A stretch of DNA of 64,000 nt, taken from the NCBI RefSeq assembly GCF_046105845.1, contig NZ_CP151004.1; one strand, written 5' to 3'. A model generated the notes under the pieces. That model saw only the letters and a list, made by a program, of their open reading frames with translations. It was not told the origin of the DNA and did not search any database. The translations under genes and the position numbers were made by a program. Positions within the stretch are counted from its first letter, which is position 1, and every line of letters starts with the position of its first letter. The stretch comes from Escherichia coli. Lineage in GTDB: Bacteria > Pseudomonadota > Gammaproteobacteria > Enterobacterales > Enterobacteriaceae. Shown one piece after another: positions 1,125-63,748 of the stretch.

Positions 1125-1270
1125 ATGGCAGGGCAGCATGGGGCTGTAACGGTAAAGCCCTCACCGAAGCGAGGGCTTGAAGGAGAAGGGTTATGATGCG
1201 ACTTGTCATCATACTGATTGTACTGTTACTCATAAGTTTCCCAGCTTATTAACAGTCAGTCTCAGGGGAG
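1125..1270 (-). ncRNA. sibC: SibC antisense sRNA (antitoxin of ibsC); ends approximate
   Basis: Inferred from known gene organisation: Sib sRNAs are about 140 nt and fully antisense to the ibs ORF. The ends were not determined from the sequence. Confidence 0.4.
1193..1252 (+). CDS. ibsC: Ibs-family type I toxin, 19-aa hydrophobic peptide (MMRLVIILIVLLLISFPAY)
   Basis: Short ORF missed by the 60-aa ORF track; SD aaggag 6-8 nt upstream; sits in the serA-ygfA intergenic region where ibsC/sibC is known to lie; peptide matches the Ibs family pattern. Confidence 0.6.
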   Translation: MMRLVIILIVLLLISFPAY

Positions 1271-1352
1271 GAGTCATCCTCCCTTACCCTTACTCACTAA
1301 ATTAGGTTAAAGAATCAACGATGTCAATCAGGGCGATGCAGGTGTGTCGCCC

Positions 1353-1973: not shown

Positions 1974-2159
1974 AGGGAATCTCCGAGATGCCGCCGCAGG
2001 CTGTAACCCTTGAACCCTTGGTTCAAGGTGAATGTGTCGTCGCAGTTTTAAGGCTTCTCGGACGGACCGAGCATGCTCACCAACCGCGGAGCGCCACATT
2101 CTTGTGGTATGAAATATCGGCTCAGGGGACTGGCCCGCTTGCGAACATCTCAGAGAAAT
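1974..2159 (-). ncRNA. ssrS: 6S RNA (RNA polymerase sigma-70 holoenzyme regulator)
   Basis: Reverse complement reads ATTTCTCTGAGATGTTCGCAAGCGGGCCAGTCCCCTGAGCCGATATTTCATACCACAAGAATGTGGCGCTCCGCGGTTGGTGAGCATGCTCGGTCCGTCCGAGAAGCCTTAAAACTGCG...GGCGGCATCTCGGAGATTCCCT, which is the 6S RNA sequence; lies directly upstream of ygfA on the same strand. Exact mature ends are within a few nt. Confidence 0.92.
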
Positions 2160-26660: not shown

Positions 26661-27095
26661 CAGTGTTTCTCCTTTCGCCCGCCAGAGTAAAAAGCAACCG
26701 TTTACGTTAATGAAACTGTCTAAACACATGCTCGTGGAGTGCCAGTTTTTGCGAGGAAGGGGAGTTAGAGACAGGAATTGCGGAGGCAATCACATAATCG
26801 TGGTTAAACCACGAAAATGAGAAGAGAACCTGACAATGGAATTATCTGTAATTTTCTCATATTGATATTTCATTAATCATTCTGGCATGTCGCACTCTCG
26901 CTTTTAATCGTTTTTATCTGGATAGCGCTCTTTTGGTCGGCAATGTTGAAATAATGAAAGCGGCACAGATTGAGGGGCAATAATTTGAACTCAGTCGCAA
27001 AATTATAATTAAAACGGTCATGCTACCTAATATATGCCCGTTTATTGCATCGCGAAATTTGAGAAGACATAACTCATTAAATGAAAGGGATGCAA

Positions 27096-36711: not shown

Positions 36712-37487
36712 ACGGCTTCCTCCCCAGCCTGTTGGCAGTCGGCATACAGGTCGGCTACCAGAACTCCCGTGATATAGCGTTTATAGGCCACGCTGCCCCG
36801 CAAATCTTCCTGCGGGAAAATGGCGTTGGCGACAGCCTGTTCAAGTGCATTGCCTTCCAGATTTTGTTTTTCAACATCGTGCAGACGCAGTGCTTTACTG
36901 GCGACGCCATCCAGCGCAATTCGCATACCGTCGTGGTCTGTCATTGCAACGGCTGCCGTCACGACGGTTAAACCTGCCTGAGAACGGCTAATTTTGCGGG
37001 TCGCACAGGTGCGATACGGATCTTTAATGATAATTTCGGTTAGCAGGCGATCGCATGGGCAGGCCAGGTAGTCCTCGATTGACAGCGTTTCGCCGTTGCC
37101 AAAAACCAGTTCAGCATCCAGTGCCAGCAGGACGGGAAGCAGCACCGACTCTTCCTGCCGGGCGGCGATTTCACCACCAATGGTCGACTGATTACGAACA
37201 TGGCGAGAGTAGACAAAGCCGAGGGCTTCACGCAGTGCTGCAGGAATAAATCGCGCATCACGCAGTGGCTGCAAGCGAGACATTGCACCAATCCGCAGTG
37301 CACCGTTATCCCAGTCAACCCAGTCCAGTTCCAGATCCTGTAAGGAAATGGCAATCTTTTTATCGGTACGGGTTGGTGTAGCGTTGAGTTTGCTGCCCCC
37401 GGCGAACCAGACGGCTTCATCCTGGTAGCGGCGCTTCAGTTCCAGCGCCTGTTCGACAGAGTCGGGCCTGAAAAATTGTTCAATCAT
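36708..37487 (-). CDS. ygfM: FAD-binding subunit of molybdopterin hydroxylase (CoxM/XdhB-like)
   Basis: 259-aa ORF MIEQFFRPDSVEQALELKRRYQDEAVWFAGGSKL...; stop overlaps the xdhD start. Confidence 0.88.
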   Translation of the reverse strand: MIEQFFRPDSVEQALELKRRYQDEAVWFAGGSKLNATPTRTDKKIAISLQDLELDWVDWDNGALRIGAMSRLQPLRDARFIPAALREALGFVYSRHVRNQSTIGGEIAARQEESVLLPVLLALDAELVFGNGETLSIEDYLACPCDRLLTEIIIKDPYRTCATRKISRSQAGLTVVTAAVAMTDHDGMRIALDGVASKALRLHDVEKQNLEGNALEQAVANAIFPQEDLRGSVAYKRYITGVLVADLYADCQQAGEEAV

Positions 37488-41967: not shown

Positions 41968-42288
41968 AACCCTCTCCTTAGCTTATACAGATATCATTGA
42001 GTGACCGGTGTTGAGAAATCCGGTGGTTTAGGGGGATAGAGCAACAATCGCACCACTCTTGCCAGGTTTGGCGGGAAATATAAAAAAATGTGAGGCGGCT
42101 CGAAACTTAAGGGCTTTTTGTGAATGAACTCACAGGTGCCAAATGAGAATTAAAATCACTCCTGAAAATTATTATTGCCAGCCCATTTATCACTTTTTCT
42201 CTTTTCTCAAAATCAGTGATTCCTTATCATTATGATAAAGAGTGCCGGAAGGATTAAATATTTGAACGCAATCGTTTAACTACGTTTT

Positions 42289-43787: not shown

Positions 43788-45413
43788 ATGAATATTTTCA
43801 CAGAGGCTGCAAAACTCGAAGAGCAAAATTGTCCGTTTGCGATGGCGCAAATTGTTGATAGCCGAGGCTCGACTCCCCGCCATTCTGCACAAATGTTAGT
43901 GCGCGCCGATGGCTCTATCGTCGGTACAATTGGTGGCGGAATGGTTGAGCGGAAGGTGATTGAAGAGTCGCTTCAGGCATTGCAGGAACGTAAGCCGCGA
44001 TTATTCCATGGACGTATGGCTCGTAACGGTGCGGATGCTGTCGGGTCAGATTGTGGAGGTGCAATGTCAGTATTTATCAGCGTCCATGGTATGCGTCCAC
44101 GTCTGGTGTTGATTGGCGCGGGGCATGTCAACCGGGCGATAGCCCAGAGTGCGGCGCTATTAGGATTTGATATTGCCGTTGCTGATATTTATCGCGAAAG
44201 CCTCAATCCTGAACTATTCCCACCATCAACCACGCTTCTCCATGCTGAGTCGTTTGGTGCGGCAGTGGAAGCACTGGATATTCGCCCTGATAATTTTGTC
44301 CTGATTGCCACGAATAATCAGGATCGTGAAGCCCTCGACAAACTCATTGAACAGCCCATTGCATGGTTGGGGTTGCTGGCAAGTCGTCGCAAGGTTCAGC
44401 TTTTCCTGCGTCAATTGCGTGAGAAAGGCGTGGCTGAAGAACATATTGCCCGTTTACATGCGCCTGTTGGTTACAACATAGGTGCGGAAACGCCGCAGGA
44501 GATCGCCATCAGCGTGCTGGCAGAAATATTACAGGTGAAAAATAACGCGCCGGGTGGGCTGATGATGAAACCTTCTCATCCTTCTGGACACCAGCTGGTG
44601 GTGATTCGCGGTGCGGGGGATATCGCCAGTGGTGTGGCGCTACGTCTGTATCATGCGGGTTTTAAAGTGATCATGCTGGAAGTGGAAAAACCGACAGTGA
44701 TTCGTTGTACCGTGGCGTTTGCCCAGGCCGTGTTCGATGGCGAAATGACGGTCGAAGGCGTCACTGCCCGCCTGGCAACCAGCTCTGCGGAAGCGATGAA
44801 ACTTACCGAACGCGGATTCATCCCTGTGATGGTAGATCCCGCCTGTTCATTGCTTGATGAACTGAAACCGCTTTGCGTGGTGGACGCTATTCTGGCGAAA
44901 CAGAATTTGGGGACGCGGGCAGATATGGCACCAGTAACAATCGCGCTTGGGCCGGGCTTTATTGCAGGGAAGGATTGTCATGCGGTAATTGAAACAAATC
45001 GCGGGCACTGGCTCGGTCAGGTGATTTACTCTGGTTGTGCGCAGGAGAATACCGGTGTTCCTGGCAATATTATGGGGCATACCACCCGACGGGTGATCCG
45101 TGCTCCTGCTGCAGGCATTATGCGATCCAACGTGAAATTAGGCGATCTGGTGAAAGAGGGCGATGTGATTGCCTGGATTGGTGAGCATGAAATTAAAGCA
45201 CCGTTGACGGGGATGGTGCGTGGCTTGTTGAACGACGGCCTGGCAGTGGTTGGTGGTTTTAAAATTGGTGATATCGATCCTCGTGGTGAAACGGCTGATT
45301 TCACCAGCGTTTCTGATAAAGCCCGGGCGATTGGCGGCGGCGTACTTGAGGCGTTAATGATGTTGATGCATCAGGGCGTTAAAGCGACGAAAGAAGTGCT
45401 GGAAGTGGCTTAA
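43788..45413 (+). CDS. yqeB: Selenium-dependent molybdenum hydroxylase 1 accessory protein, YqeB family (XdhC/CoxI-like)
   Basis: 541-aa ORF MNIFTEAAKLEEQNCPFAMAQIVDSRGSTPRHSAQMLVR... Confidence 0.85.
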   Translation: MNIFTEAAKLEEQNCPFAMAQIVDSRGSTPRHSAQMLVRADGSIVGTIGGGMVERKVIEESLQALQERKPRLFHGRMARNGADAVGSDCGGAMSVFISVHGMRPRLVLIGAGHVNRAIAQSAALLGFDIAVADIYRESLNPELFPPSTTLLHAESFGAAVEALDIRPDNFVLIATNNQDREALDKLIEQPIAWLGLLASRRKVQLFLRQLREKGVAEEHIARLHAPVGYNIGAETPQEIAISVLAEILQVKNNAPGGLMMKPSHPSGHQLVVIRGAGDIASGVALRLYHAGFKVIMLEVEKPTVIRCTVAFAQAVFDGEMTVEGVTARLATSSAEAMKLTERGFIPVMVDPACSLLDELKPLCVVDAILAKQNLGTRADMAPVTIALGPGFIAGKDCHAVIETNRGHWLGQVIYSGCAQENTGVPGNIMGHTTRRVIRAPAAGIMRSNVKLGDLVKEGDVIAWIGEHEIKAPLTGMVRGLLNDGLAVVGGFKIGDIDPRGETADFTSVSDKARAIGGGVLEALMMLMHQGVKATKEVLEVA

Positions 45414-45421
45414 ATGAAAAT

Positions 45422-45447
45422 GGCCGGATGGTATTACCCACCCGGCC
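45422..45447. terminator. Bidirectional terminator hairpin between convergent yqeB and yqeA
   Basis: ggccggatggtattacccacccggcc, roughly 10-bp stem. Confidence 0.55.
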
Positions 45448-45453
45448 TTTAAA

Positions 45454-46386
45454 TTACTGACAAATCACCGTTCCGGTTTTGCCTTCAATCCCTTCTTTCG
45501 CTTTGCTCAATACGGTAATCAGTGCTTCACGACCTGCGCGAGAGCGAGCAAACGAGGCGGCAGCTTCCACTTTAGGCAGCATAGAACCTTTCGCAAAATG
45601 ACCTTCTTCGATAAAGCGTTCAGCATCACTTAATGACAGGCGATCGAGCCACTGTTCATTCTCTTTACCGAAGTTAATGGCCACTTTTTCTACCGCAGTC
45701 AGAATGATCAGCATATCGGCATCAATCATTTCTGCTAAACGGGCGCTGGCCCAGTCTTTATCGATAACCGCACTGGCACCACGCAGGTGGTTACCTTCAC
45801 GAATAACAGGGATACCACCTCCGCCAACGGTGATCACCACCTGGCCTGCATCTACCAACGCTTTAACCGTTTCTTTTTCAATGATATCAACCGGTTTTGG
45901 CGAGGCAACAACACGGCGATAGCCGCGACCAGCATCTTCTTTCAGAGTGTAACCCTGTTTTGTCAGTTGCTCTGCTTCTTGTTCGGTAAAGAACGAACCG
46001 ATCGGCTTGGTCGGGTTGAGGAATGCCGGGTCGTTAGCATCGACTTCGACCTGGGTAACCAGCGTTGCTACAGGTTTATTAATGCCACGAGAAAGCAGTT
46101 CTTCTCTTAATGCGTTTTGTAGATCGTAACCAATATAACCCTGGCTTAAGGCAACACAGACAGACATCGGCAGCATTGGCGAGTGCGCTTCAGTTTTTGC
46201 GGCAGCTTCAAAGGCCTGGTTAATCATGCCCACCTGTGGCCCGTTACCGTGAGTGACGATGACCTCATGTCCCTGGGCAATTAAATCAACAATTGCCTGA
46301 GACGTAATTTTTACCGCTTTCATTTGTCCGGCCAGGTCATCGCCCAGCGCATTCCCGCCCAGGGCGAGAACAATTTTCTTACTCAT
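45454..46386 (-). CDS. yqeA: Carbamate kinase-like protein
   Basis: 310-aa ORF MSKKIVLALGGNALGDDLAGQ...; amino-acid-kinase family N-terminal motif. Confidence 0.9.
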   Translation of the reverse strand: MSKKIVLALGGNALGDDLAGQMKAVKITSQAIVDLIAQGHEVIVTHGNGPQVGMINQAFEAAAKTEAHSPMLPMSVCVALSQGYIGYDLQNALREELLSRGINKPVATLVTQVEVDANDPAFLNPTKPIGSFFTEQEAEQLTKQGYTLKEDAGRGYRRVVASPKPVDIIEKETVKALVDAGQVVITVGGGGIPVIREGNHLRGASAVIDKDWASARLAEMIDADMLIILTAVEKVAINFGKENEQWLDRLSLSDAERFIEEGHFAKGSMLPKVEAAASFARSRAGREALITVLSKAKEGIEGKTGTVICQ

Positions 46387-46433
46387 TTTTCCTCACTCAT
46401 CATTCTTGATTGTGTATAGATCCCTGGCAGTGG

Positions 46434-47819
46434 TTAGAGCACGGGAGGGACAAACGGTTTGCGTCGCAGGAAACGACCTCGCCCGGCTTTGCCTGTAAAG
46501 GTGCCGTCACAGAAAATCGTTTCACCACGGGATAAGGTTCTGACAATCGCGCCCTGACAGGTAAAACCCTCCCATGGCGAGTAGTCGGCGTTGTCGTGGA
46601 GATGGCGATGCTGAATTTGTTGGCTCTGACGTGGGTCGATAATCACCACGTCGCCATCGGAACCGGGCGCTAATAATCCTTTTTGCGGCCACAGGCCAAA
46701 CAGCCTGGCGGGCATTGCGCTGGTTAATTCAACAAAACGTTCCGGTGTTATACGTCCCGTCATAACGCCACTGGAAAACAGTAACTGCATGCGGTTTTCC
46801 ACACCGGGTAAGCCATTTGGGCAGCGACTGAAATCGCCTTTAGAAATTTGCAGGCGTTGAGCCATCGAGAACGTGCAGTGATCGGTCGCTACCACGTCAA
46901 TCGCACCATCGCTGATGCCACACCACAGTTTGTCCTGCTCGCGTACGTTACGCAGCGGTGGGCTAAGAATGAACTTCATGCCATCTTCTGTATCGTAACT
47001 GCGTTCGTCCAACAGGAGATATTGTGGGCAGGTTTCAACCCAGACTGGCTGGTGATTCGCACGGGCAAGACGCAGATAATCCAGACCTAAGCCGTTAGAC
47101 AGGTGCACGATATAGAGCGGGGCGTTACCGGCAATTTGTGCCAGGTTAATCATGCGGGCGATGGCTTCCGCTTCGCATTCCAGAGGGCGACTCAAGGCGT
47201 GATAGCGCGGCGCGGTTAACCCTGCGGCAATAAACTCCGCCCGCTTGCTGGCGATAGCTGCATCATTTTCCGGGTGCACGGTGGTCAGCGCGCCGGACTC
47301 ATGCAAGCGGCGTAACGCCTGCAAAACTTCGTCATCGTTGAGTTTGTATTGATAGGTTAAATAGAGTTTAAAACTGCTCAGCCCTTCCTCGACCATCATC
47401 GGGATTTCGTCGAGGATGGCGTGATTAATGTGCTGGATCACACCGTGAAAGCTGTAGTCGATGACCGCCTTATGGGCGGCATAACCACGATAAACCTCCA
47501 GTTGATGGCGTAACCGGCAGCCATTCGGGCCAAATCCCATATGGTCAATAATGGTTGTTGTACCGCCACACGCAGCTGCGCGGGTACCGGTAAAAAAATC
47601 ATCACAACTGCGCGCGATGCCGACATCAATATTGAAATGCGTATGGACATCCACGCCGCCAGGGAAAACGTAACAGCCAGTGGCATCAATTTCTTCATAC
47701 GGGAGCTGTGGCGAAATATTGTTGCCCAACTGGCGAACAATCCCGCTTTCAATCAGCAAATCCTGTTTGGCTTGTCCATCTGCGTTAACGACAGTGCCGT
47801 TTTTGATCAATACGCGCAT
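46434..47819 (-). CDS. hyuA: D-phenylhydantoinase / dihydropyrimidinase-like cyclic amidohydrolase
   Basis: Start set at MRVLIKNGTVVNADGQAKQDLLIESGIV... to give 461 aa; DxHxH metal motif (GGVDVHTHF). Confidence 0.9.
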   Translation of the reverse strand: MRVLIKNGTVVNADGQAKQDLLIESGIVRQLGNNISPQLPYEEIDATGCYVFPGGVDVHTHFNIDVGIARSCDDFFTGTRAAACGGTTTIIDHMGFGPNGCRLRHQLEVYRGYAAHKAVIDYSFHGVIQHINHAILDEIPMMVEEGLSSFKLYLTYQYKLNDDEVLQALRRLHESGALTTVHPENDAAIASKRAEFIAAGLTAPRYHALSRPLECEAEAIARMINLAQIAGNAPLYIVHLSNGLGLDYLRLARANHQPVWVETCPQYLLLDERSYDTEDGMKFILSPPLRNVREQDKLWCGISDGAIDVVATDHCTFSMAQRLQISKGDFSRCPNGLPGVENRMQLLFSSGVMTGRITPERFVELTSAMPARLFGLWPQKGLLAPGSDGDVVIIDPRQSQQIQHRHLHDNADYSPWEGFTCQGAIVRTLSRGETIFCDGTFTGKAGRGRFLRRKPFVPPVL

Positions 47820-47871
47820 AGCAAACTCCAAAAACCCTCCGGCGAACCGGAGGGGAATAAGTGAAGAGTAA

Positions 47872-49083
47872 TTATTCGGTTGCCAGCCAGCTTAACGGGA
47901 TTGCAGCGTACATCGCGGCACAGGTCACCAGGTGAGATTTCCAGGTTTTTTCGTTAGGTGCATGTGCTTCAGGTTCTTTACCCGGGCCAAAGCCGATCAC
48001 CGGAATGCCGTGACGGCCCATGATAGATACGCCGTTAGTTGAGAAGGTCCACTTATCAACAACCGGCGCTTTGCCAAACAGCCCTTCGTAGGCATTCACC
48101 AGTGCTTTAACGGTGAAGTGATCTTCTTCCACTTTCCAGGTCGGGAAGTAGCATTCGGTTGGGTATACCAGGCCAGTCCAGGACGGACGGTCGTAGTTGT
48201 ACATAGAAACAACCGCGTTAGCTTTCTGTACCGCAGGCAGGGCGCGGATTTCATCCAGCGCGCCTTCCCAGGTTTCGCCCCAGGTCAGACGGCGGTCAAT
48301 AGAGACGGCGCAGCTATCTGCTACTGCGCAACGGCTTGGGGATGTGAAGAAGATTTCAGAAACGGTGAGGGTGCCTTTGCCGAGGAATTCGTCATAACCC
48401 AGACGTTGGGAGAGTTCTTGTAATTCGCCAAGAATCGGACCCATTTTGAAAATGGCGTTGTCACCGCGTTCTGGTGCAGAACCGTGGCAGCTAACACCCT
48501 GAACATCAATACGAATTTCCATACGACCGCGCTGACCACGGTATACCTGGCAGTCGGTTGGTTCGGTACTGACCACAAATTCCGGGCGAATGCCGGATTG
48601 TTCAATAATGTACTGCCAGCACAGGCCGTCGCAGTCTTCTTCCTGCACAGTACCGGTAACCAGCAGGGTATATTCATCTTCCAGACCGAGGTCTTTAATG
48701 ATTTTACCGGCATAAACCATAGATGCCATGCCGCCTTCCTGGTCGGAAGTACCGCGACCACCGATCAGCTCATCAGTTTCCATGCCTTCGTACGGATCGA
48801 AGTCCCAGTTTTTGATGTTGCCAATGCCGACGGTATCGATATGAGCGTCCATTGCCACCAGACGCGGGCCGTGGCCGATATAACCGAGAACGTTGCCCAT
48901 CGGGTCGATTTCAACTTTATCGAAGCCTACTTTTTCCATCTCTTCTTTAATACGATGTACTACGCGTTTTTCGTCGCAGCTTTCACTGGGAATAGCAACC
49001 ATGTCGCGCAGGAAGCGAGTCATGTCCGCCTGGTAATCTTTTGCTTTTTCAAGAATCAGTTTGAATGGAATATTCTTAGCCAT
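47872..49083 (-). CDS. ygeY: M20-family peptidase / amidohydrolase
   Basis: 403-aa [38 protein letters not shown]... Confidence 0.9.
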
Positions 49084-49140
49084 TATTTTTCTCCAGATTT
49101 TTTACTCCCCGTTTTGCAGGGAGCAGTTCCAATAGGGTGA

Positions 49141-50337
49141 TTAAGGTGCTACAGCGTGTTTGCCTTCCCAGACAACTTCGCGGTAGTGCTTCACGTCTGT
49201 GTCGCCTTCAGTGCTGATAACCAGCACTACGGCATCTTTGTTCAGCGCCAGTTTTTCCATCAGGCTTTGACGTTGCGGGTGATAATGAACCGCTGCGAGA
49301 ACGCCCAAACCGACAGCGCCGGATTCACCGGAGATGATGCGCGGGTCATTGCCGTACGGATTACCCAGCACACGCATACCTAATGCGGCAACGCTGTCCT
49401 GGCAGGAGATGAATTGGGTGGCGCAGTTACGTAGGATTTCCCAGCCCAGCGGGTTAGGTTCGCCGCAGGCCAGGCCCGCCATGATGGTGGCCATATCACC
49501 GCCAACGTTGACGATGTCGCCTTTGACGCCGGAGCGATAAATACAGTCAGCTTTGTCAGGTTCAACAATAATGCTGTGCAGATTTTGCGGGCTGTAGACG
49601 TCGACCAGATAACCCAGCACACCACCGGCCATTGCACCGACACCGGCTTGCAGCAGAACGTGTGTCGGGGTTACGCCCATTTCACGCATTTGCTCGACGG
49701 CTTCATCTGCCAGTGTTGCGTAGCCTTGCATGATCCAGGTTGGGATTTTGGTGTAACCTTTCCATGCTGTGTCCTGTACCACTTCCCAACCGTGCTGCTG
49801 CGCATGTTGCATGGTCAGGCGAACGGTATCGTCATAGTTCATATCCGTGACGATGCACTCGGCACCGAGGTTCAGAATGGCGTCAACGCGTTCCTGAGCA
49901 GAACCTTTCGGCATGTAAATCACCGCATTCTGTCCGAGTTGCTGCGCTGCCCACGCCACACCGCGCCCGTGGTTGCCGTCGGTGGTGGTCGCGAAAGTCA
50001 TTTTTTCGCCGATGGCATTTTTCAGGTGCTCAAATGACAGCGTTTCGATATCAAGATGATATTTTTCACACAATAATTGAGCGATGGCGTATGCACCGCC
50101 GAGCATTTTGAAGGCGTTCAGACCGAATCGTTTTGATTCGTCTTTGACGAGAATTTTCTTCACACCAAAAAGGTTTGCGAGATCGTCCAGCGCACAAAGC
50201 GGTGTTGGGCGATAACCAGCAATTTTCTGGTGGAACTGGCGCGCCAGTTTGGCCTGGCTTTGCGAAAAGAGCGGTGATGTTTCGCCGTTGAAAAATTTGT
50301 TATCGGCGATATCAATCTTCAATGAGAAAACGGACAT
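49141..50337 (-). CDS. ygeX: Diaminopropionate ammonia-lyase (PLP-dependent)
   Basis: 398-aa ORF MSVFSLKIDIADNKFFNGETSPLF...; PLP-lysine region DESKRFGLNAFKMLGG. Confidence 0.9.
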   Translation of the reverse strand: MSVFSLKIDIADNKFFNGETSPLFSQSQAKLARQFHQKIAGYRPTPLCALDDLANLFGVKKILVKDESKRFGLNAFKMLGGAYAIAQLLCEKYHLDIETLSFEHLKNAIGEKMTFATTTDGNHGRGVAWAAQQLGQNAVIYMPKGSAQERVDAILNLGAECIVTDMNYDDTVRLTMQHAQQHGWEVVQDTAWKGYTKIPTWIMQGYATLADEAVEQMREMGVTPTHVLLQAGVGAMAGGVLGYLVDVYSPQNLHSIIVEPDKADCIYRSGVKGDIVNVGGDMATIMAGLACGEPNPLGWEILRNCATQFISCQDSVAALGMRVLGNPYGNDPRIISGESGAVGLGVLAAVHYHPQRQSLMEKLALNKDAVVLVISTEGDTDVKHYREVVWEGKHAVAP

Positions 50338-50394
50338 ATCCTATCCTTTTGGCCTCTGGAAATAGAGGGCCGACCAGCTGATCGGCCCGAGGGG

Positions 50395-51585
50395 TTATTT
50401 CACGCGTTCTTGCGCTTCTTTCAGCAGTTGCTCGAGCAGTGCACCTGGTTTGGCGTATTTACGGGACAGGATCATCGCGGCGATGATATAAGGCTTCCAG
50501 CTGGCTTCTTTGTAGGTCGCGATACGGTATTTTTCGAATACGCCTTCAGTCACTTCACCTTCTTTGCAGGATACGCCGCTGATATCAGCTGGCAGGCAGT
50601 GCATGTACAGGGCTTCGCCATCACGGGTCAGTTCCATCATCTCTTCAGTACAATGCCAGTCTTTGTGTTGCGCGTTCTGTGCCAGACACTGTTTTTCCAG
50701 TGCTTTTAAGCCTTCGTGGTCGTTCGCACGCAGCAATTCAGTACGCTCTTCCATCACTTTGTAAGGTGCCCATGACTTCGGATAAACGATGTCTGCGTCT
50801 TTGAAGGCTTCTTCCATGCTGGTGACCTGACGGAAACTACCGCCAGAGGCTTTAGCATTGTTTTTCGCCACTTCAACCACATCCGGGATCAGGTCGTAGC
50901 CTTCCGGATGGGCCAGGGTGACATCCATACCGAAGCGAGTCATCAGACCGATGATGCCTTGTGGTACAGAGAGCGGTTTGCCATAGCTTGGGGAGTAGGC
51001 CCAGGTCATGGCGATTTTTTTACCTTTCAGGTTTTCCAGTGAACCAAAGTGTTCACGTAACCATGCCAGGTCAGCCATTGACTGAGTCGGGTGGTCAATA
51101 TCGCATTGCAGGTTCACTAAAGCCGGACGTTGCGGCAGCACACCCTGCTTGTAACCGTCATCAAGTGCAGCGCCAACTTCACGCATATAGGCGTTGCCTG
51201 CGCCCAGATACATATCGTCGCGAATACCAATAGCGTCGGCGCAGAAGGAGATCATATTGGCGGTTTCACGCACGGTTTCGCCGTGAGCGATTTGTGATTT
51301 GCCTTCGTCGAGATCTTGCTGTGCAAGGCCGAGCAGGTTAAGCGCGGAAGCATAAGAGAAGCGGGTTCGGGTGGAGTTGTCGCGGAATACGGAAATACCT
51401 AATCCACTATTAAAGACTTTGGTTGAGATGTTTTCAGCACGCAGTGCTTTTAATGCTGCGGCAACGTCCAGTACTTGTTTCAGTTCATCTGGCGTCTGTT
51501 CCCACGTTAACAAAAAATCTTTTTCGTGAAGGTGAGAGGTCAGCGAATTGATATCCTTAATCAGCTCATTAACAGTTTTCATCAT
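50395..51585 (-). CDS. ygeW: Carbamoyltransferase-like protein (ATCase/OTCase fold)
   Basis: 396-aa ORF MMKTVNELIKDINSLTSHLHEKDFLLTWEQ...; STRTR carbamoyl-phosphate-binding motif. Confidence 0.9.
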   Translation of the reverse strand: MMKTVNELIKDINSLTSHLHEKDFLLTWEQTPDELKQVLDVAAALKALRAENISTKVFNSGLGISVFRDNSTRTRFSYASALNLLGLAQQDLDEGKSQIAHGETVRETANMISFCADAIGIRDDMYLGAGNAYMREVGAALDDGYKQGVLPQRPALVNLQCDIDHPTQSMADLAWLREHFGSLENLKGKKIAMTWAYSPSYGKPLSVPQGIIGLMTRFGMDVTLAHPEGYDLIPDVVEVAKNNAKASGGSFRQVTSMEEAFKDADIVYPKSWAPYKVMEERTELLRANDHEGLKALEKQCLAQNAQHKDWHCTEEMMELTRDGEALYMHCLPADISGVSCKEGEVTEGVFEKYRIATYKEASWKPYIIAAMILSRKYAKPGALLEQLLKEAQERVK

Positions 51586-52060
51586 AAAGTCCCGGTAGTG
51601 GAATGACAGGCAAAGAGGTTTATTTCACTGTGACTTGCCAAAGTGATTGGTGTTTTCACAGCTATACCTGGGACTAACAATAAGTGTGCCAGAATTATCC
51701 GCGCGGCTGGAAAAGACTAATTTGACGGATAATGTGTGGGGTTGATCACAAATTGATGCCAGCTTCCGGTTGTTTGTAAAATACGAAAACGTTTGGCTTT
51801 TTTTATCGCGTTATTTATTTGCTGCTAAGTATCAGAAATAAGATAAAGGGACAGGCGATCTCTCTTCAGTTTGATAAACTCACCGCCGTAATTCTCATAT
51901 TGATATAGAAATGTGATATCTCTTCCATAATTTCATTAGAAAGTGATAAAAATCTTATGTTTTTATCAAAGCCAATTTCGCCTGAGTTAATATCATCATG
52001 ATCTATGAACCATCAACGTCTTCAATGATCGACTTTTAAGTAAGTCTGGAAGGTAAAGCT

Positions 52061-53839
52061 ATGGAGCTTGCTACTACGCAGTCAGTATTGATGCAAATTC
52101 AACCGACAATTCAGCGTTTTGCCAGAATGCTTGCCAGCGTTTTGCAGCTTGAGGTTGAGATCGTTGATGAAAACTTGTGTCGCGTCGCCGGAACGGGCGC
52201 GTATGGGAAGTTTCTTGGTCGCCAGTTGAGCGGCAACTCACGCCTGCTCCGCCACGTCCTGGAAACGAAAACTGAAAAAGTTGTGACACAGTCTCGCTTC
52301 GATCCCCTTTGTGAAGGTTGCGATAGTAAAGAAAATTGCCGCGAAAAAGCATTTCTGGGTACGCCTGTCATTTTACAGGATCGTTGTGTTGGGGTGATAA
52401 GTTTGATTGCCGTTACCCACGAGCAACAAGAGCATATTAGTGATAATTTACGCGAATTTTCTGATTACGTTCGCCATATATCCACCATTTTTGTTTCGAA
52501 ACTTCTGGAGGATCAGGGACCAGGAGATAACATCAGTAAAATATTCGCGACCATGATCGATAATATGGATCAGGGTGTATTAGTTGTTGATGACGATAAT
52601 CGGGTTCAGTTTGTTAATCAGACAGCCTTAAAAACACTCGGTGTTGTGCAAAATAATATTATTGGGAAACCTATCCGTTTCAGACCATTAACATTTGAGA
52701 GTAATTTTACCCATGGACATATGCAGCATATTGTTTCGTGGGACGATAAAAGTGAGTTAATCATTGGTCAATTGCATAACATTCAGGGCCGACAATTATT
52801 TTTAATGGCGTTTCACCAATCGCATACCAGTTTTTCTGTAGCAAATGCACCTGATGAACCGCATATTGAACAATTGGTTGGCGAGTGCCGTGTTATGCGG
52901 CAATTAAAACGACTCATTAGCCGTATTGCACCCAGCCCATCCAGCGTTATGGTGGTTGGTGAAAGCGGCACAGGTAAAGAAGTCGTCGCCCGTGCAATCC
53001 ATAAGTTGAGCGGAAGACGGAATAAACCCTTTATTGCTATCAACTGTGCCGCGATTCCGGAGCAGCTTCTGGAGAGCGAACTGTTCGGTTATGTTAAAGG
53101 CGCATTTACTGGCGCTTCTGCCAACGGTAAAACAGGGTTGATTCAGGCGGCGAATACGGGCACGCTGTTTCTCGATGAAATAGGTGATATGCCATTAATG
53201 TTGCAGGCTAAATTACTGCGCGCTATTGAGGCGCGTGAAATTCTGCCGATTGGTGCCAGTAGCCCAATACAAGTCGACATTCGCATCATTTCTGCAACTA
53301 ACCAGAATTTGGCCCAGTTCATTGCCGAAGGTAAATTCCGCGAAGATCTCTTCTACCGACTTAATGTTATCCCGATAACTCTGCCACCGCTGCGTGAACG
53401 TCAGGAAGATATTGAACTACTGGTGCATTACTTTTTACATCTGCATACCCGTCGTCTGGGATCGGTTTATCCGGGCATTGCTCCCGATGTCGTCGAAATA
53501 TTGCGTAAGCATCGTTGGCCCGGAAACCTGCGCGAGTTAAGCAATTTGATGGAATATCTGGTTAACGTGGTTCCTTCAGGTGAAGTTATCGACAGCACGC
53601 TATTGCCGCCAAATCTGCTGAATAATGGCACAACGGAGCAAAGTGGTGTAACAGAGGTCAACGAGGCGCACCTGGCACTCGATGATGCGGGCGGCACGGC
53701 GCTGGAGGAGATGGAAAAGCAAATGATCCGCGAGGCGCTTTCACGTCATAACAGCAAGAAGCAAGTTGCTGATGAACTGGGCATCGGCATTGCTACGCTC
53801 TATCGCAAGATTAAGAAATATGAGTTGTTAAACACATAA
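52061..53839 (+). CDS. ygeV: Sigma-54-dependent transcriptional activator (bacterial enhancer-binding protein)
   Basis: 592 aa; AAA+ sigma-54 interaction domain (GESGTGKE Walker A, GAFTGA motif, C-terminal HTH). Confidence 0.92.
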   Translation: MELATTQSVLMQIQPTIQRFARMLASVLQLEVEIVDENLCRVAGTGAYGKFLGRQLSGNSRLLRHVLETKTEKVVTQSRFDPLCEGCDSKENCREKAFLGTPVILQDRCVGVISLIAVTHEQQEHISDNLREFSDYVRHISTIFVSKLLEDQGPGDNISKIFATMIDNMDQGVLVVDDDNRVQFVNQTALKTLGVVQNNIIGKPIRFRPLTFESNFTHGHMQHIVSWDDKSELIIGQLHNIQGRQLFLMAFHQSHTSFSVANAPDEPHIEQLVGECRVMRQLKRLISRIAPSPSSVMVVGESGTGKEVVARAIHKLSGRRNKPFIAINCAAIPEQLLESELFGYVKGAFTGASANGKTGLIQAANTGTLFLDEIGDMPLMLQAKLLRAIEAREILPIGASSPIQVDIRIISATNQNLAQFIAEGKFREDLFYRLNVIPITLPPLRERQEDIELLVHYFLHLHTRRLGSVYPGIAPDVVEILRKHRWPGNLRELSNLMEYLVNVVPSGEVIDSTLLPPNLLNNGTTEQSGVTEVNEAHLALDDAGGTALEEMEKQMIREALSRHNSKKQVADELGIGIATLYRKIKKYELLNT

Positions 53840-57697: not shown

Positions 57698-57956
57698 GGG
57701 CAGTGATACGTATCAATATGAGTGGCGATAAAATCAATGTGATAAATTGGGATTATTACGCATCAGGATGGGAAATAGGGTAAATGAGTCAGGAAATTCG
57801 ATACATCTATAGTGAATATTTTGCTGATGATACTTCCCTTTGCCAAATGAAATTAACCTCTTTCTCTATTACCGCGTTTTTCCAGAAGCAAGAGATTGGG
57901 TATCCAGAGGCTGGCTGCTATGATATGGCGTCTTGTTTTTTAAGCGAGGAAAGATT

Positions 57957-58787: not shown

Positions 58788-58861
58788 GCGGGCGTAGTTC
58801 AATGGTAGAACGAGAGCTTCCCAAGCTCTATACGAGGGTTCGATTCCCTTCGCCCGCTCCA
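58788..58861 (+). tRNA. glyU: tRNA-Gly (anticodon CCC)
   Basis: 74 nt: acceptor stem gcgggcg/cgcccgc, anticodon loop cttCCCaag, T-arm ggttcgattcc, and 3' end ...tcca (CCA not encoded). Confidence 0.93.
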
Positions 58862-59081
58862 ATTTATCTTCACCGCATCAACCTGTCATTTTTGTTGTAT
58901 CTTATTTTCCATATTATCTTAATTCAATCGCTTCAGACTTTTCGCAATCGCCGAAATACTTCCCCATTTTTTTGTAAATAAAAGCGTTTACGCAATGCAA
59001 TCCATTTGTAACAACCCAGGTAAAATACCTTATTTTCAAGTTGTTAAATAAGTGGTTATCTACGCTTTTAACAAACGATTG

Positions 59082-60704
59082 ATGGAATCTTTTATGAAAG
59101 GGAAATCTACATTAACTCTTCTGCTCGCTGGTATATTTTCATGCGGCACATGCCAGGCGACAGGGGCAGAAGTGACGAGTGAATCTGTATTTAACATTCT
59201 TAATTCCACGGGGGCAGCAACTGATAAAAGTTATTTATCGTTAAATCCAGATAAGTATCCTAATTATCGTCTTCTGATTCACTCAGCCAAATTAAAAAAT
59301 GAAATAAAGAGCCACTATACCAAAGACGAAATTCAAGGATTGTTAACATTAACAGAAAATACACGAAAGTTAACGTTGACGGAGAAACCCTGGGGAACAT
59401 TTATTCTTGCTTCTACTTTCGAAGATGACAAAACAGCGGCAGAAACCCACTATGATGCTGTCTGGCTGAGGGATAGTTTATGGGGCTATATGGCATTAGT
59501 ATCAGAACAGGGAAATAGTGTAGCCGCAAAAAAGGTTCTGCTCACTCTGTGGGATTATATGTCTACGCCCGACCAGATTAAGCGGATGCAGGATGTCATT
59601 AGCAACCCAAAACGACTGGATGGAATTCCCGGGCAAATGAATGCTGTGCATATCCGATTTGACAGCAACTCCCCCGTGATGGCAGATGTGCAGGAAGAAG
59701 GCAAGCCGCAGCTGTGGAACCATAAACAAAATGATGCTTTAGGTCTTTATCTTGATCTCCTTATACAAGCAATCGACACTGGTACTATTAACGCTGAAGA
59801 CTGGGAAAAAGGTGACCGATTAAAATCGATTGCGCTGTTGGTTGCTTATCTGGATAAAGCCAATTTCTATGTTATGGAAGATTCCGGAGCGTGGGAAGAA
59901 GATGCCAGATTAAACACATCTTCCGTTGCACTGGTGACCTCTGGACTGGAACGTTTGTCGAACTTACTCTCGAAGAAAGACTCTGTTTTTATCTCTGATT
60001 TACTACGCGAAGCTAAAGCCAATGAACTGGATGAAACTCTTTCAACAACGAGGTTGAACCATCTCATAGATAAAGGGTATGAAAGAATAACGCTACAGCT
60101 TGATTTAGGGGGAGAATCCCCTGGTTATCTGGAAAAAGATAAACATTACAGAGAAGCTGATGCGGCCTTACTTAATGTTATTTATCCTGCAAATCTTTCA
60201 AAGATAAATACCAGAAGAAAAGAGCAAGTTCTAAAAATAGTTAAAAAACTAGCAGGTCCGTATGGTATAAAAAGATACGAGAAGGATAATTATCAGTCGG
60301 CAAATTTTTGGTTCAATGATATTAAAACTGATACTGATGAAAATTCACATGCGAAAAGAGAAAAGAGCTTCATTCCATCAACAGAAGCAGAATGGTTTTT
60401 TGACTCATGGTATGCAAAATCAGCAGCAATTGTTTATAAAGAATCAAGAAAAGAAGAATATTTGAATGACTCAGTGCAATTTATGAATAGATCATTGGCC
60501 CAAATAACAGGCGAGAATATGATTGGTGCAAATGGCAGGAGCGTACCTGAAATGGCACTTCCCGAAAGCTATAACTATATCCACAAGTCAGGAACTTTGC
60601 ATGAAGCGCCAAGCCCTATCATTCCGCTAAACTGGTCGAAAGCCTCAATGACTCTTATGTTGAAAGAAATGTCCAACCTTATCAATGATGAGGGAATTAA
60701 ATAG
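59082..60704 (+). CDS. Secreted glycoside-hydrolase-like protein, GH15 (glucoamylase-like) motifs
   Basis: Signal peptide MKGKSTLTLLLAGIFSCGTCQA; motifs AVWLRDSLWGY and EDSGAWEEDARLN resemble the GH15 substrate-binding Arg and catalytic acid regions. Start ambiguous (ATG at 59082 or 59094). Probably corresponds to the ygeQ locus, which is a pseudogene in K-12. Confidence 0.6.
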   Translation: MESFMKGKSTLTLLLAGIFSCGTCQATGAEVTSESVFNILNSTGAATDKSYLSLNPDKYPNYRLLIHSAKLKNEIKSHYTKDEIQGLLTLTENTRKLTLTEKPWGTFILASTFEDDKTAAETHYDAVWLRDSLWGYMALVSEQGNSVAAKKVLLTLWDYMSTPDQIKRMQDVISNPKRLDGIPGQMNAVHIRFDSNSPVMADVQEEGKPQLWNHKQNDALGLYLDLLIQAIDTGTINAEDWEKGDRLKSIALLVAYLDKANFYVMEDSGAWEEDARLNTSSVALVTSGLERLSNLLSKKDSVFISDLLREAKANELDETLSTTRLNHLIDKGYERITLQLDLGGESPGYLEKDKHYREADAALLNVIYPANLSKINTRRKEQVLKIVKKLAGPYGIKRYEKDNYQSANFWFNDIKTDTDENSHAKREKSFIPSTEAEWFFDSWYAKSAAIVYKESRKEEYLNDSVQFMNRSLAQITGENMIGANGRSVPEMALPESYNYIHKSGTLHEAPSPIIPLNWSKASMTLMLKEMSNLINDEGIK

Positions 60705-60769
60705 TTTTCATAATGAGGCGGTCCTGGATTAAAAGGACCGCTCAAAGAGAAATCGTAAGGGAGGTAAAA

Positions 60770-60949
60770 GTGATCAATAAATTACTGTTAGCTTACCTGA
60801 TAGGTCTGGTTGTGACATCGACCTTAATATTTATCTTCTCGGAAGAAAAAGTAACATATCGGTTGTTTGCTGCAGTAATTACAGGGTTGACCTGGCCGCT
60901 TAGCCTCATTCCATCCATCATAAGTCTCATGATTCGTAAATCCGACTAA
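60770..60949 (+). CDS. Small (59-aa) two-helix membrane protein
   Basis: Strong SD aagggagg 6 nt upstream of GTG 60770; two hydrophobic segments (LLLAYLIGLVVTSTLIFIF; LFAAVITGLTWPLSLIPSIISLMI). The track ORF from 60713 lacks an SD. Confidence 0.45.
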   Translation: MINKLLLAYLIGLVVTSTLIFIFSEEKVTYRLFAAVITGLTWPLSLIPSIISLMIRKSD

Positions 60950-61294
60950 CAAGAAAATTATATGAACGATTAAGAAAAATAGAATCGAAAAAGAGAATAA
61001 AATATATGCGGGGAGTAACAAAACACTCGCAGTACGTTAATGTGTAACTAACAAATATGATTTTTATTGAAAATAGTCACCAAACAAGTGTTATAAGAAA
61101 TACGGGGTATGTTTAAGTAAAACATATCAACAGTTGCAATTCTGTATATGGACAGGATGACTTACTACTGTAAGTGGCTGATAGCTATTCGCTCATAACA
61201 AAATCATTATTTTATAAATAGTAATCATCACTTTTTAATCATGTTTTTATAGCAAGTTTATGGAGAATGAGAATATGGAATAAGGAGATGAAAC

Positions 61295-62044
61295 ATGATT
61301 GAAGAAGGGCTGTTACTTCCAATGAATGTTTTGCTTCAAGGACAGAAGTTAACCCTACTGGACCCTGAAATGTGGTTCTTACGGGGAAATGAAAACAAGG
61401 ATGTAACCCTTGTTATTACGATTGGTAATAACCATCAAAAATTAATGGTAGTGGAAGATATATTACTGCTCATTGACCGAAGCCAAATTGAGGTAACTGC
61501 AGGGAAAGTAATTTATCATCCACTTCGCATTGATATCCTGAGTAAATTATTAGCTTTTATAGATGAATCAACGGGGAGTGTGGAAAGGGAACACCATGAA
61601 TTGTTTGCTGATGCCTTGCCCTTTGCATCAGAAGTTGTGCTATTCAGTAAAGTTGCAAGTGAAGCCTGGTTTTTAGCCACTTATCTGAGCAGCGATAATA
61701 TTAATGAAATTCTGTTTCAGCATCTAAGAAAAACAGAATGCTATAAACTGGTTCGCTATTTATTATCGCAATCGCTCATACAGACTTCACTCTATGATCT
61801 TGGTGAGCTTTACGGCGTATCGTATTCACATTTTCGCCGTTTATGTAGTTATGCATTGGGTGGTAAAGTTAAAACGGAATTATGTGGCTGGAGAGTTGCC
61901 AGAGCCGTGTTGGAAATCATTGAAGGAAACAGTGATATGACAACTATTGCGCATAAATATGGCTACTCATCCTCATCACACTTTTCAGCCGAAGTAAAAA
62001 GCCGGTTAGGAAAAACACCGAGAGAACTATGTAAAAAGTTATGA
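61295..62044 (+). CDS. eivF: AraC-family T3SS transcriptional activator (InvF-like)
   Basis: 249 aa; C-terminal AraC HTH (TIAHKYGYSSSSHFSAEVKSRLGKTPREL); SD aaggag upstream; stop overlaps the secretin start (ATGA). Confidence 0.7.
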   Translation: MIEEGLLLPMNVLLQGQKLTLLDPEMWFLRGNENKDVTLVITIGNNHQKLMVVEDILLLIDRSQIEVTAGKVIYHPLRIDILSKLLAFIDESTGSVEREHHELFADALPFASEVVLFSKVASEAWFLATYLSSDNINEILFQHLRKTECYKLVRYLLSQSLIQTSLYDLGELYGVSYSHFRRLCSYALGGKVKTELCGWRVARAVLEIIEGNSDMTTIAHKYGYSSSSHFSAEVKSRLGKTPRELCKKL

Positions 62045-63744: not shown

Positions 63745-63748
63745 TGAA

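Follow-up and report, generated by a model that had tools for sequence, protein, structure and literature searches.

Candidate control elements and enzyme assignments of ygeW-ygeX-ygeY-hyuA-yqeA, a gene block with a very probable role in anaerobic urate degradation in Escherichia coli

The five-gene block and its neighbours

We examined a five-gene block in a 64,000-nucleotide stretch of an Escherichia coli chromosome (hereafter the window, to which all coordinates refer). An earlier note had placed five co-directional genes at 45454-51585, and we found open reading frames at exactly these limits. The content and common direction of the block thus held, but its strand needed correction, since the block lies on the minus strand. 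Consequently, ygeW-ygeX-ygeY-hyuA-yqeA is the order of transcription, and transcription proceeds towards lower window coordinates. The genes of the block and the nearby genes assigned to upstream steps are:

51585 (or ATG 51582) to 50395, minus strand: ygeW, catabolic carbamoyltransferase (YTCase), predicted to be knotted
50337-49141, minus strand: ygeX/dpaL, PLP-dependent 2,3-diaminopropionate ammonia-lyase
49083-47872, minus strand: ygeY, M20 metallohydrolase
47819 to 46434, minus strand (the open reading frame reaches TTG 47831): hyuA, D-hydantoinase
46386-45454, minus strand: yqeA/arcC, carbamate kinase
33.8-42.0 kb: xdhD-ygfM, ygfK and ssnA, proposed upstream pathway steps, just outside the block coordinates

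All five genes are intact, with no internal stop in ygeW, ygeX, ygeY, hyuA or yqeA, and each protein scored above the curated cut-off of its own NCBIfam equivalog model over its full length. Pfam domains were concordant (OTCace_N/OTCace, PALP, Peptidase_M20 with M20_dimer, Amidohydro_1 and AA_kinase), such that both collections agree with the five enzyme identities that had been claimed. We observed no Pfam match among open reading frames overlapping or antisense to the block, and no Rfam family match between 45000 and 52300.

The block is widespread, with 5181 of the 5426 complete genomes of E. coli carrying it. Over the stretch, the DNA of this strain shows only 95-99% identity to most genomes of the species; the RefSeq annotation of one chromosome, 99.2% identical, has the identical five genes in identical order. 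The same locus, gene order and neighbours occur in E. coli K-12 (b2870-b2874; Li et al. 2025; Liu et al. 2025), and the K-12 structures 3Q98 and 4D9G have near-identical counterparts among the window proteins, with no functional difference. Moreover, the five-gene order recurs in 16 other gammaproteobacterial loci from 11 genera, which contradicts the idea of an island specific to E. coli. The carbamate kinase gene yqeA lies four genes downstream of ygeW, within the block, and YqeA adjoins or lies close to YgeW in many of 80 loci. On the low-coordinate side, all within 12 kb, are ssnA, ygfK, xdhD, ygfM, yqeB, yqeC and mocA (from annotation, with the open reading frames confirmed in the window), and the window also holds xdhABC and the transporter genes xanQ, ghxQ and uacT.

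Enzyme assignments and the urate pathway

YgeW scored 825 bits against NF005538 (cut-off 453) and 675 bits against TIGR03316 (cut-off 500), and fell below the cut-offs of the models for ornithine (OTCase; 133 vs 281) and aspartate (ATCase; 71-75 vs 237-263) transcarbamylases; its score against the N-acetylornithine transcarbamylase (AOTCase) model was 129 bits. It matched PDB 3Q98 over its full length (E=2.9e-269), and its translation carries the SxRT, HPxQ and HxLP motifs (as FRDNSTRTR, DHPTQ and MHCLP), which are the carbamoyl-phosphate-binding motifs of YgeW-type transcarbamylases (PMC4581275). As 3Q98 is described as knotted (PMC4581275), we infer from near-identity to this structure that the C-terminal domain of YgeW is trefoil-knotted with a proline-rich loop. 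Similarly, YgeX exceeded the cut-off of the 2,3-diaminopropionate (DAP) ammonia-lyase model TIGR03528 (650 bits; cut-off 532) and matched 4D9G, the solved E. coli enzyme, over residues 1-398 (E=6.8e-274). YgeY scored 722 bits against TIGR03526 (cut-off 321), and among solved structures it has no nearer relatives than ArgE/DapE (E=7.6e-16 at best). HyuA scored 675 bits against the D-hydantoinase/dihydropyrimidinase model TIGR02033 (cut-off 393) and matched D-hydantoinase structures at E of about 1e-109. YqeA scored 385.6 bits against the carbamate kinase model TIGR00746 (cut-off 358.25), with 3-309 of its 310 residues covered, and matched carbamate kinase 1B7B (E=5.5e-90).

We conclude that the block very probably carries the genes for the lower half of a reductive pathway, named after 2,8-dioxopurine ("yanthine"), by which E. 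coli degrades uric acid anaerobically. This role was already published in 2025 (Li et al., Life Metab; Liu et al., bioRxiv), and our pathway finding adds nothing beyond these two studies and a commentary. In the proposed route, XdhD-YgfM, YgfK and SsnA would reduce urate to 2,8-dioxopurine, remove the aromaticity of this product and cleave its six-membered ring, which yields ureidomethylhydantoin (UMH). HyuA would then hydrolyse the hydantoin ring of UMH to give 2,3-diureidopropionate, from which YgeW, with phosphate, would phosphorolyse one ureido group to release carbamoyl phosphate. YqeA would use carbamoyl phosphate and ADP to form ATP and carbamate. Each urate would give one ATP through this substrate-level phosphorylation, which has its parallel in the arginine deiminase pathway. 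YgeY would hydrolyse the second ureido group to give DAP, which YgeX would convert to pyruvate and ammonia.

The earlier suggestion of a ring-opening route that recovers ATP from carbamoyl phosphate matches published biochemistry with the E. coli proteins (PMC12507026; bioRxiv 10.1101/2025.04.24.650524) and was thus right, if not new. It needs refinement in two respects. The block is the lower half only, since xdhD-ygfM, ygfK and ssnA encode the enzymes that reduce the purine and open its pyrimidine ring, and the proposed enzyme order (HyuA, YgeW with YqeA, YgeY, YgeX) is unlike the gene order. Others have demonstrated all five steps of the block in vitro with recombinant E. coli proteins (PMC12507026; bioRxiv 10.1101/2025.04.24.650524). 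Specifically, HyuA cleaves UMH, HyuA with YgeW and phosphate gives a mono-ureido product, and YgeY with YgeX gives pyruvate (PMC12507026); YgeW, YqeA and ADP convert 2,3-diureidopropionate with formation of ATP (bioRxiv 10.1101/2025.04.24.650524). This enzymology comes wholly from two papers on K-12 proteins, one of them a preprint. In published work, E. coli deletion mutants pile up the same intermediates as Clostridium sporogenes mutants and do not make labelled acetate.

We considered two other roles for these genes. YgeW might be the oxamate transcarbamylase of classical anaerobic allantoin degradation, with YqeA as partner kinase, as was historically predicted from its fold and its carbamate-kinase neighbour (cited in PMC11326118). 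Since oxamate transcarbamylase has been identified as AllFGH, which has its own kinase, AllK, and is encoded at another locus (PMC11326118), that assignment was already refuted, and with YgeW acting on 2,3-diureidopropionate we regard such a role as exceedingly improbable. Alternatively, the five genes might form a loose neighbourhood of independent salvage or detoxification functions, in which a phenylhydantoinase of general use, an enzyme that detoxifies diaminopropionate and a surplus carbamate kinase stand side by side. The first characterisation of HyuA indeed used phenylhydantoin as substrate, and that of YgeX used free DAP, and release of guanidine has been speculated upon (PMC12623156). 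Against this stand the sequential reconstitution of the pathway, the accumulation of its intermediates in mutants, the strict synteny across 11 genera and the co-regulation of the genes in one iModulon, which leave independent functions very unlikely.

Which ureido group YgeW removes, 3-ureido or 2-ureido, is an acknowledged question, and its product is disputed between the two papers, with Liu et al. giving 3-amino-2-ureidopropanoate. Purely by family analogy, we lean slightly towards removal of the 3-ureido group, because YgeW scored higher against the OTCase and AOTCase models (133 and 129 bits) than against ATCase (71-75 bits), and because ArgE and DapE, the closest relatives of YgeY, are N-alpha-deacylases. 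OTCase and N-acetylornithine transcarbamylase carbamoylate the distal (delta) amine, the latter on an N-alpha-acylated substrate.

The pathway shares features with several known systems. Like the arginine deiminase module (ArcB with ArcC), it couples phosphorolysis of a ureido group to carbamoyl phosphate with ATP formation by carbamate kinase, and YqeA matches the arcC equivalog model; this analogy was drawn by Liu et al. (bioRxiv 10.1101/2025.04.24.650524). It differs from that module in that YgeW is predicted to be knotted and to have another second-substrate site, and in that the substrate is 2,3-diureidopropionate rather than citrulline. AllFGH with AllK likewise serves a purine-derived route of E. 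coli in which energy is conserved by way of carbamoyl phosphate and a carbamate kinase of its own, but AllFGH has no sequence relationship to the transcarbamylase family, lies at a different locus and acts on oxalurate, in an oxidative route through allantoin. The reductive pyrimidine pathway (PydA/PydB/PydC), an analogy used by Li et al. (PMC12507026) and Barba et al. (2013), shares reductive dearomatisation, ring opening by a cyclic amidohydrolase and ureido hydrolysis, and HyuA matches the dihydropyrimidinase equivalog model. Here, in contrast, the hydantoin is purine-derived, one ureido group is phosphorolysed with ATP formation rather than hydrolysed, and the end product is DAP and then pyruvate. 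The Clostridioides difficile cluster shares the HyuA, YgeY and YgeX pathway, but a D-aminoacylase-like hydrolase, UacY, replaces YgeW and YqeA. Since UacY hydrolyses the ureido group, no ATP is gained, and thus the ATP-yielding branch is optional.

Control region and transcript structure

Upstream of ygeW lie the divergent gene ygeV and several candidate control elements:

52061..53839, plus strand: ygeV (uacR/isrR), divergent sigma-54 enhancer-binding protein
51991..52003, no strand assigned: second dyad-like element TATCATCATGATC, of which the TGATA half alone is invariant across genera
51893..51905, no strand assigned: dyad TATCA-N3-TGATA with 1 mismatch, candidate YgeV/UacR operator
51735..51750, no strand assigned: CRP-like site TGTGAtcaaccCCACA with 1 mismatch, which has the dyads upstream of it and the candidate sigma-54 promoter downstream
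51677..51691, minus strand: candidate sigma-54 promoter element of the -24/-12 type, TGGCACacttaTTGT, some 95 nt before the ATG of ygeW

The sigma-54 element reads TGGCAC-N5-TTGT, with TTGT instead of TTGC at -12, and TTGT is kept in other genera. Of 14 further gammaproteobacterial loci that we scanned, 10 have the element at the equal position (in Edwardsiella, Pluralibacter, Serratia, Enterobacter, Hafnia, Cedecea and Kosakonia), and an RpoN gSELEX peak has been reported in the ygeV/ygeW spacer (PMC8743547). YgeV, named UacR in PMC12623156, has a weak GAF domain followed by PAS, AAA+ and HTH_8 domains, without a receiver domain (Pfam Sigma54_activat, 237 bits; HTH_8; PAS_8), and ygfT expression is reported to be lowered in a ygeV mutant. 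We infer that transcription of ygeW would start at the sigma-54 promoter and be activated by the divergent YgeV/UacR. The dyad at 51893..51905, within the most conserved block of the spacer alignment, is a candidate operator for this activator. In 16 of 17 gammaproteobacterial loci, a dyad lies 270-430 nt ahead of ygeW, and each of the four control regions of the published YgeV/UacR iModulon contains the TATCA-N3-TGATA dyad. Alignment A1 shows conservation of the GTGA-N6-TCRCA block of the CRP-like site. A native Crp site in the ygeV/ygeW spacer and glucose repression of the pathway have been described by Li et al., and modulation of ygeW sigma-54 transcription by CRP would explain this repression.

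Within and after the block, we identified four stem-loops:

50367..50388, minus strand: GC-rich stem-loop in the ygeW-ygeX spacer (centroid structure -18.3 kcal/mol)
49103..49125, minus strand: stem-loop in the ygeX-ygeY spacer (whole-spacer MFE -15.3 kcal/mol, z=-2.8 vs shuffles)
47830..47854, minus strand: terminator-like hairpin CCCTCCGG-TTCG-CCGGAGGG followed by TTTTT, abutting the hyuA Shine-Dalgarno
45422..45447, minus strand: strong hairpin and T-tract with the tail ATTTTCATTT, within the 40 nt that separate the convergent genes yqeA and yqeB

In other genera, an equivalent hairpin of different sequence follows ygeW. The hairpin before hyuA (centroid structure -16.6 kcal/mol; whole-spacer z=-3.1) has a strong counterpart at the equal position in 11 of 11 Enterobacterales loci examined, with some compensatory changes; its T-tract is not conserved in other genera, whereas the hairpin is. 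Probably it either terminates transcription in part or, as a 3' structure, stabilises the mRNA. The hairpin after yqeA has 10 pairs, 8 of them G-C (-22.6 kcal/mol, z=-5.2), and the transcription unit would end there, while the intergenic stem-loops probably tune the relative amounts of its segments.

We considered that the block might comprise two units, such that ygeWXY ends at the hairpin and TTTTT (47854-47830) and hyuA-yqeA is expressed from an internal promoter. A terminator-like structure does precede hyuA, the literature speaks of a "ygeWXY operon", and there is a sigma-70-like match within ygeY (48729-48701). Moreover, the published 13-gene YgeV iModulon, in which ygeW, ygeX, ygeY and hyuA co-vary, does not list yqeA. 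Yet hyuA shares that iModulon with ygeWXY, the hyuA Shine-Dalgarno (GGAG just 5' of ATG 47819) follows the hairpin so closely that no room is left for a promoter, and promoter-like matches were not commoner than expected from shuffles (5 vs 7.1). Conservation of the hairpin without its T-tract likewise argues against a split, PMC12623156 writes of a "ygeWXY-hyuA-yqeA operon", and uncoupled expression would be odd given that HyuA acts before YgeW. We thus consider two units unlikely. Direct documentation of co-transcription of all five genes in E. coli did not appear in the accessible parts of the literature. Homologues are urate-induced in three gut species (RNA-seq), as are ygfK and ygfT of E. 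coli (RT-qPCR); urate induction of the ygeW operon itself in E. coli is not shown in the passages covered. Together with the co-variation in the iModulon, these inductions do not contradict the earlier note's reading, either as to joint transcription or as to induction by purines or urate.

Taking these elements together, on balance we favour, with reserve, a model from sequence in which TATCA-N3-TGATA is the YgeV/UacR operator, placed 117-209 nt upstream of four sigma-54 promoters (uacT, ygfK, ygeW and xdhA) that jointly cover the 13-gene iModulon, with CRP sites interposed at ygeW and ygfK. The intergenic stem-loops, including the terminator-like one before hyuA, would set the ratio of YgeW/YgeX/YgeY to HyuA/YqeA. 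This layer of control may be undescribed, as we found no description of the sigma-54 promoter, the CRP-like site, the dyad or the intergenic stem-loops in the searchable literature.

Implications for urate consumption

Through this pathway, E. coli and many gut anaerobes consume urate secreted by the host and gain ATP and pyruvate, and work is under way to build the pathway into probiotics for use against hyperuricaemia and gout. E. coli strains with enzymes more than 98% identical differ in their rate of urate consumption. The candidate operator, the sigma-54 and CRP elements and the internal terminator-like hairpin could help to explain such differences between strains. The regulatory map may thus be useful, and could guide promoter engineering of uricolytic strains.

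Genes and pathway of the ygeW-yqeA block

The earlier note had described five co-directional genes, encoding a carbamoyltransferase-fold protein, a PLP ammonia-lyase, an M20 amidohydrolase, a hydantoinase and a carbamate kinase. We confirmed the five genes and these product types by open reading frames (ORFs), NCBIfam, Pfam and RefSeq annotation, and corrected the strand, which is the minus strand:

51585 (or the second ATG, 51582) to 50395, minus strand, ygeW ORF
50337-49141, minus strand, ygeX/dpaL ORF
49083-47872, minus strand, ygeY ORF
47819-46434, minus strand, hyuA ORF
46386-45454, minus strand, yqeA/arcC ORF

The ORFs are separated by 47-57 nt, and the region from 45000 to 52000 is present in 5181 of 5426 complete E. 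coli genomes (best identity 99.2%), the closest of which carries identical names for all five genes in RefSeq. Each product matches an NCBIfam model end to end, above the curated cut-off, with consistent Pfam domains. YgeW is essentially identical to the solved K-12 protein 3Q98 and YgeX to the solved K-12 protein 4D9G, HyuA matches solved D-hydantoinases and YqeA solved carbamate kinases; YgeY has no close relative of solved structure, the best being ArgE (E=7.6e-16). All three transcarbamylase motifs (SxRT, HPxQ and HxLP) are found in YgeW. The GC content of the block (0.50-0.54) is typical of E. coli, and nothing in the base composition suggests that the five genes were recently acquired by horizontal transfer. 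At the far end of the window (59000-64000), GC falls to 0.36-0.41, and the matching genome annotation there lists type III secretion system remnants (eivF, sctC, sctV and others) of an ETT2-like island, just past tRNA-Gly(CCC) (58788-58861).

Five overlapping or antisense ORFs of 107-218 aa had no match in a Pfam search, and we treated them as non-coding. Rfam scans, both of 45000-52300 at E<=1 and of the entire window at gathering score, found no riboswitch or leader family within the operon. Elsewhere, Rfam placed 6S RNA (ssrS) at 1976-2159 (minus strand) and a Sib antitoxin RNA at 1177-1327 (minus strand); 6S RNA lies about 0.9 kb from where linear mapping to strain AST215 would place it, which implies an indel of about 0.9 kb between the two strains somewhere within about 2-26 kb of the window.

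The proposal that these enzymes open a hydantoin or ureido intermediate and recover ATP from carbamoyl phosphate is correct according to published biochemistry with these E. coli proteins, and the route is already published rather than new. Prior bioinformatics (Barba et al.) had tied b2870-b2874 to purine catabolism; the old idea that YgeW is the oxamate transcarbamylase has been refuted, since that enzyme is AllFGH. Two independent studies, Li et al. (Life Metab 2025, PMC12507026) and Liu et al. (bioRxiv 10.1101/2025.04.24.650524), worked out this reductive (2,8-dioxopurine) pathway, which begins with the reduction of urate to 2,8-dioxopurine by XdhD-YgfM; YgfK and SsnA then dearomatise this compound and open its six-membered ring to give ureidomethylhydantoin. 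The hydantoin ring is next opened by HyuA, yielding 2,3-diureidopropionate; this loses one ureido group to YgeW, which uses phosphate, and the other to YgeY, and YgeX converts 2,3-diaminopropionate to pyruvate (same sources). Liu et al. obtained ATP from 2,3-diureidopropionate with YgeW, YqeA and ADP, and likened this to the arginine deiminase pathway (10.1101/2025.04.24.650524).

The block encodes just the lower half of this pathway, in a gene order that differs from the reaction order; the upper-half genes xdhD, ygfM, ssnA and ygfK, together with the cofactor genes mocA, yqeB and yqeC, lie in the same window at 33.8-45.4 kb. An apparent internal stop in ygfM (36690-37487) was rejected as a coordinate artefact of annotation transferred from another strain: the gene has the normal 259-aa form, ending at 36708, and in the closest RefSeq genome it is longer (265 aa), with a 22-nt overlap with xdhD.

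Li et al. and Liu et al. disagree on which ureido group YgeW takes off (PMC12507026; 10.1101/2025.04.24.650524), and a published commentary names this choice among the questions still to settle. According to Liu et al., the product is (R)-3-amino-2-ureidopropanoate, the 3-ureido group being lost; their standard was a mixture from urea heated with diaminopropionate (10.1101/2025.04.24.650524). Among NCBIfam models, YgeW scores higher with ornithine transcarbamylase (OTCase) and N-acetylornithine transcarbamylase than with aspartate transcarbamylase (ATCase). OTCase and N-acetylornithine transcarbamylase add the carbamoyl group to the distal (delta) amine, and the second of them acts on an N-alpha-acylated substrate; ATCase carbamoylates an alpha-amine. 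The closest kin of YgeY are the N-alpha-deacylases ArgE and DapE, and there is no M20 ureidohydrolase among its solved relatives. By family analogy, therefore, these model scores and this kinship would lean weakly to the order of Liu et al.

Searched with YgeW, species-representative genomes yielded 80 loci (L003-L082) in at least six phyla (Pseudomonadota, Bacillota, Bacteroidota, Spirochaetota, Elusimicrobiota and others), with YgeW identities of 67-93%; this conservation is unusually tight, and such identities are very high for an enzyme of catabolism. The five genes stand in the order ygeW-ygeX-ygeY-hyuA-yqeA also in Edwardsiella, Pluralibacter, Serratia, Enterobacter, Hafnia, Cedecea, Kosakonia, Erwinia, Aeromonas and Photobacterium, with a divergent ygeV detected 5' of it in most such loci except those of Aeromonas, where ygeV is co-oriented (L012) or none was detected (L010, L011). 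Bacillota mostly have ygeX-ygeY-ygeW-yqeA, and many Bacteroidota metagenome-assembled genomes have only a ygeY-ygeW pair, with ygeX and yqeA absent nearby. These occurrences in other genera and phyla indicate that the island is not E. coli-specific, contrary to a remark in PMC12623156.

Transcript structure and intergenic stem-loops

The regulatory and transcript anatomy of the block comes from our own analysis, and we found no description of it in the searchable literature. The transcription unit ends after yqeA, at a strong hairpin in the 40 nt that separate this gene from the convergent yqeB. GC-rich stem-loops also occupy three of the four intergenic spacers, including one that resembles an intrinsic terminator:

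45447-45422, minus strand, strong hairpin with T-tract (-22.6 kcal/mol, z=-5.2)
47854-47826, ygeY-hyuA hairpin CCCTCCGG-TTCG-CCGGAGGG followed by TTTTT, abutting the hyuA Shine-Dalgarno sequence

Each of the 11 Enterobacterales loci examined has a strong hairpin at this place between ygeY and hyuA, partly different in sequence; conservation does not extend to the T-tract. RNAalifold on this spacer from 11 genera gave a weak consensus of six pairs, two with compensatory changes, and hence a weak formal signal of covariation; since the spacers align poorly, the evidence for the hairpin comes from individual folds.

Its terminator-like look, with the TTTTT run, might suggest two transcription units, ygeWXY and hyuA-yqeA, split at the hairpin. 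We consider such a split unlikely, because hyuA co-varies with ygeWXY in the YgeV iModulon, a published set of 13 co-varying genes (xdhABC, ygeWXY, hyuA, ygfK-ssnA-ygfM-xdhD, ygfT and uacT), and because a promoter cannot fit between the hairpin and hyuA. On our reading, therefore, the hairpin does not bound an operon; it would terminate transcripts partially or stabilise their 3' ends and in this way tune stoichiometry. Last in the block, yqeA is not among the iModulon genes; hyuA, just 5' of it, is included.

Control regions and the activator YgeV

The 478-nt divergent spacer between ygeW and ygeV contains a sigma-54 element and a CRP-like site, the latter in a conserved block of the spacer alignment:

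51691-51677, minus strand, sigma-54 element TGGCACacttaTTGT
51735-51750, CRP-like site, one mismatch

Of 14 other gammaproteobacterial loci scanned, 10 (in Edwardsiella, Pluralibacter, Serratia, Enterobacter, Hafnia, Cedecea and Kosakonia) carry the sigma-54 element, with its unusual -12 TTGT, 84-125 nt 5' of ygeW; the element is invariant in an alignment of nine genera. An RpoN gSELEX peak reported for this spacer is in accord with it, as are earlier predictions cited in a later paper. The CRP-like site fits the "native Crp site" in the ygeW region and the glucose repression described by Li et al. (PMC12507026).

YgeV (52061-53839, plus strand) is a sigma-54 enhancer-binding protein that combines a weak GAF match with PAS, sigma-54 AAA+ and HTH_8 domains; the domain search found no receiver domain. 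A 2022 paper renamed it IsrR and termed it an orphan response regulator; its domain content points instead to a ligand-sensing activator.

The best-conserved block of the spacer lies further 5' of the CRP-like site, centred on the dyad TATCA-N3-TGATA. Allowing one mismatch, the window has eight such dyads (1.46 expected), five of them in four spacers that control exactly the 13 iModulon genes. Composition-matched shuffles of these spacers gave a mean of 0.127 dyads, and five were reached in none of 5000. Each spacer also has a sigma-54-like element 117-209 nt 3' of a dyad:

26855-26867, dyad, ygfT/uacT spacer
26744-26730, minus strand, sigma-54-like element TGGCACtccacGAGC, 5' of uacT
42225-42237, dyad, 5' of ygfK
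42119-42134, perfect CRP consensus TGTGAatgaacTCACA, between dyad and sigma-54 element 5' of ygfK
42055-42041, minus strand, sigma-54-like element TGGTGCgattgTTGC, 5' of ygfK
51893-51905 and 51991-52003, dyads, ygeV/ygeW spacer
57732-57744, dyad, 5' of xdhA
57612-57598, minus strand, sigma-54-like element TGGCGTaaatcTTGC, 5' of xdhA

No sigma-54 element was found for ygfT on the plus strand. The CRP site of ygfK mirrors the CRP-like site of ygeW, so that the two operons may share a dyad-CRP-sigma-54 layout.

The position of the dyad is conserved across genera: it occurs 270-430 nt 5' of ygeW in 16 of 17 gammaproteobacterial loci. In the six loci where ygfK comes after the operon, it precedes ygfK by 207 nt (L018) or 235-247 nt (the remaining five), and in two loci it precedes the xdhA homologue by 208 nt. 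From this conservation and its presence in the iModulon spacers, we propose the dyad as a candidate YgeV/UacR operator; we found no published motif in the searchable literature. A perfect dyad inside ygeX (50049-50061) was rejected as an internal operator: it begins exactly at codon 93, codes for Y-H-L-D and varies at the level of codons where it recurs in other genera, so that protein conservation suffices to explain it.

Taken jointly, the proposed dyad operator, the sigma-54 and CRP elements and the intergenic stem-loops would form a regulatory architecture of the block, a reading toward which we lean, if only slightly.
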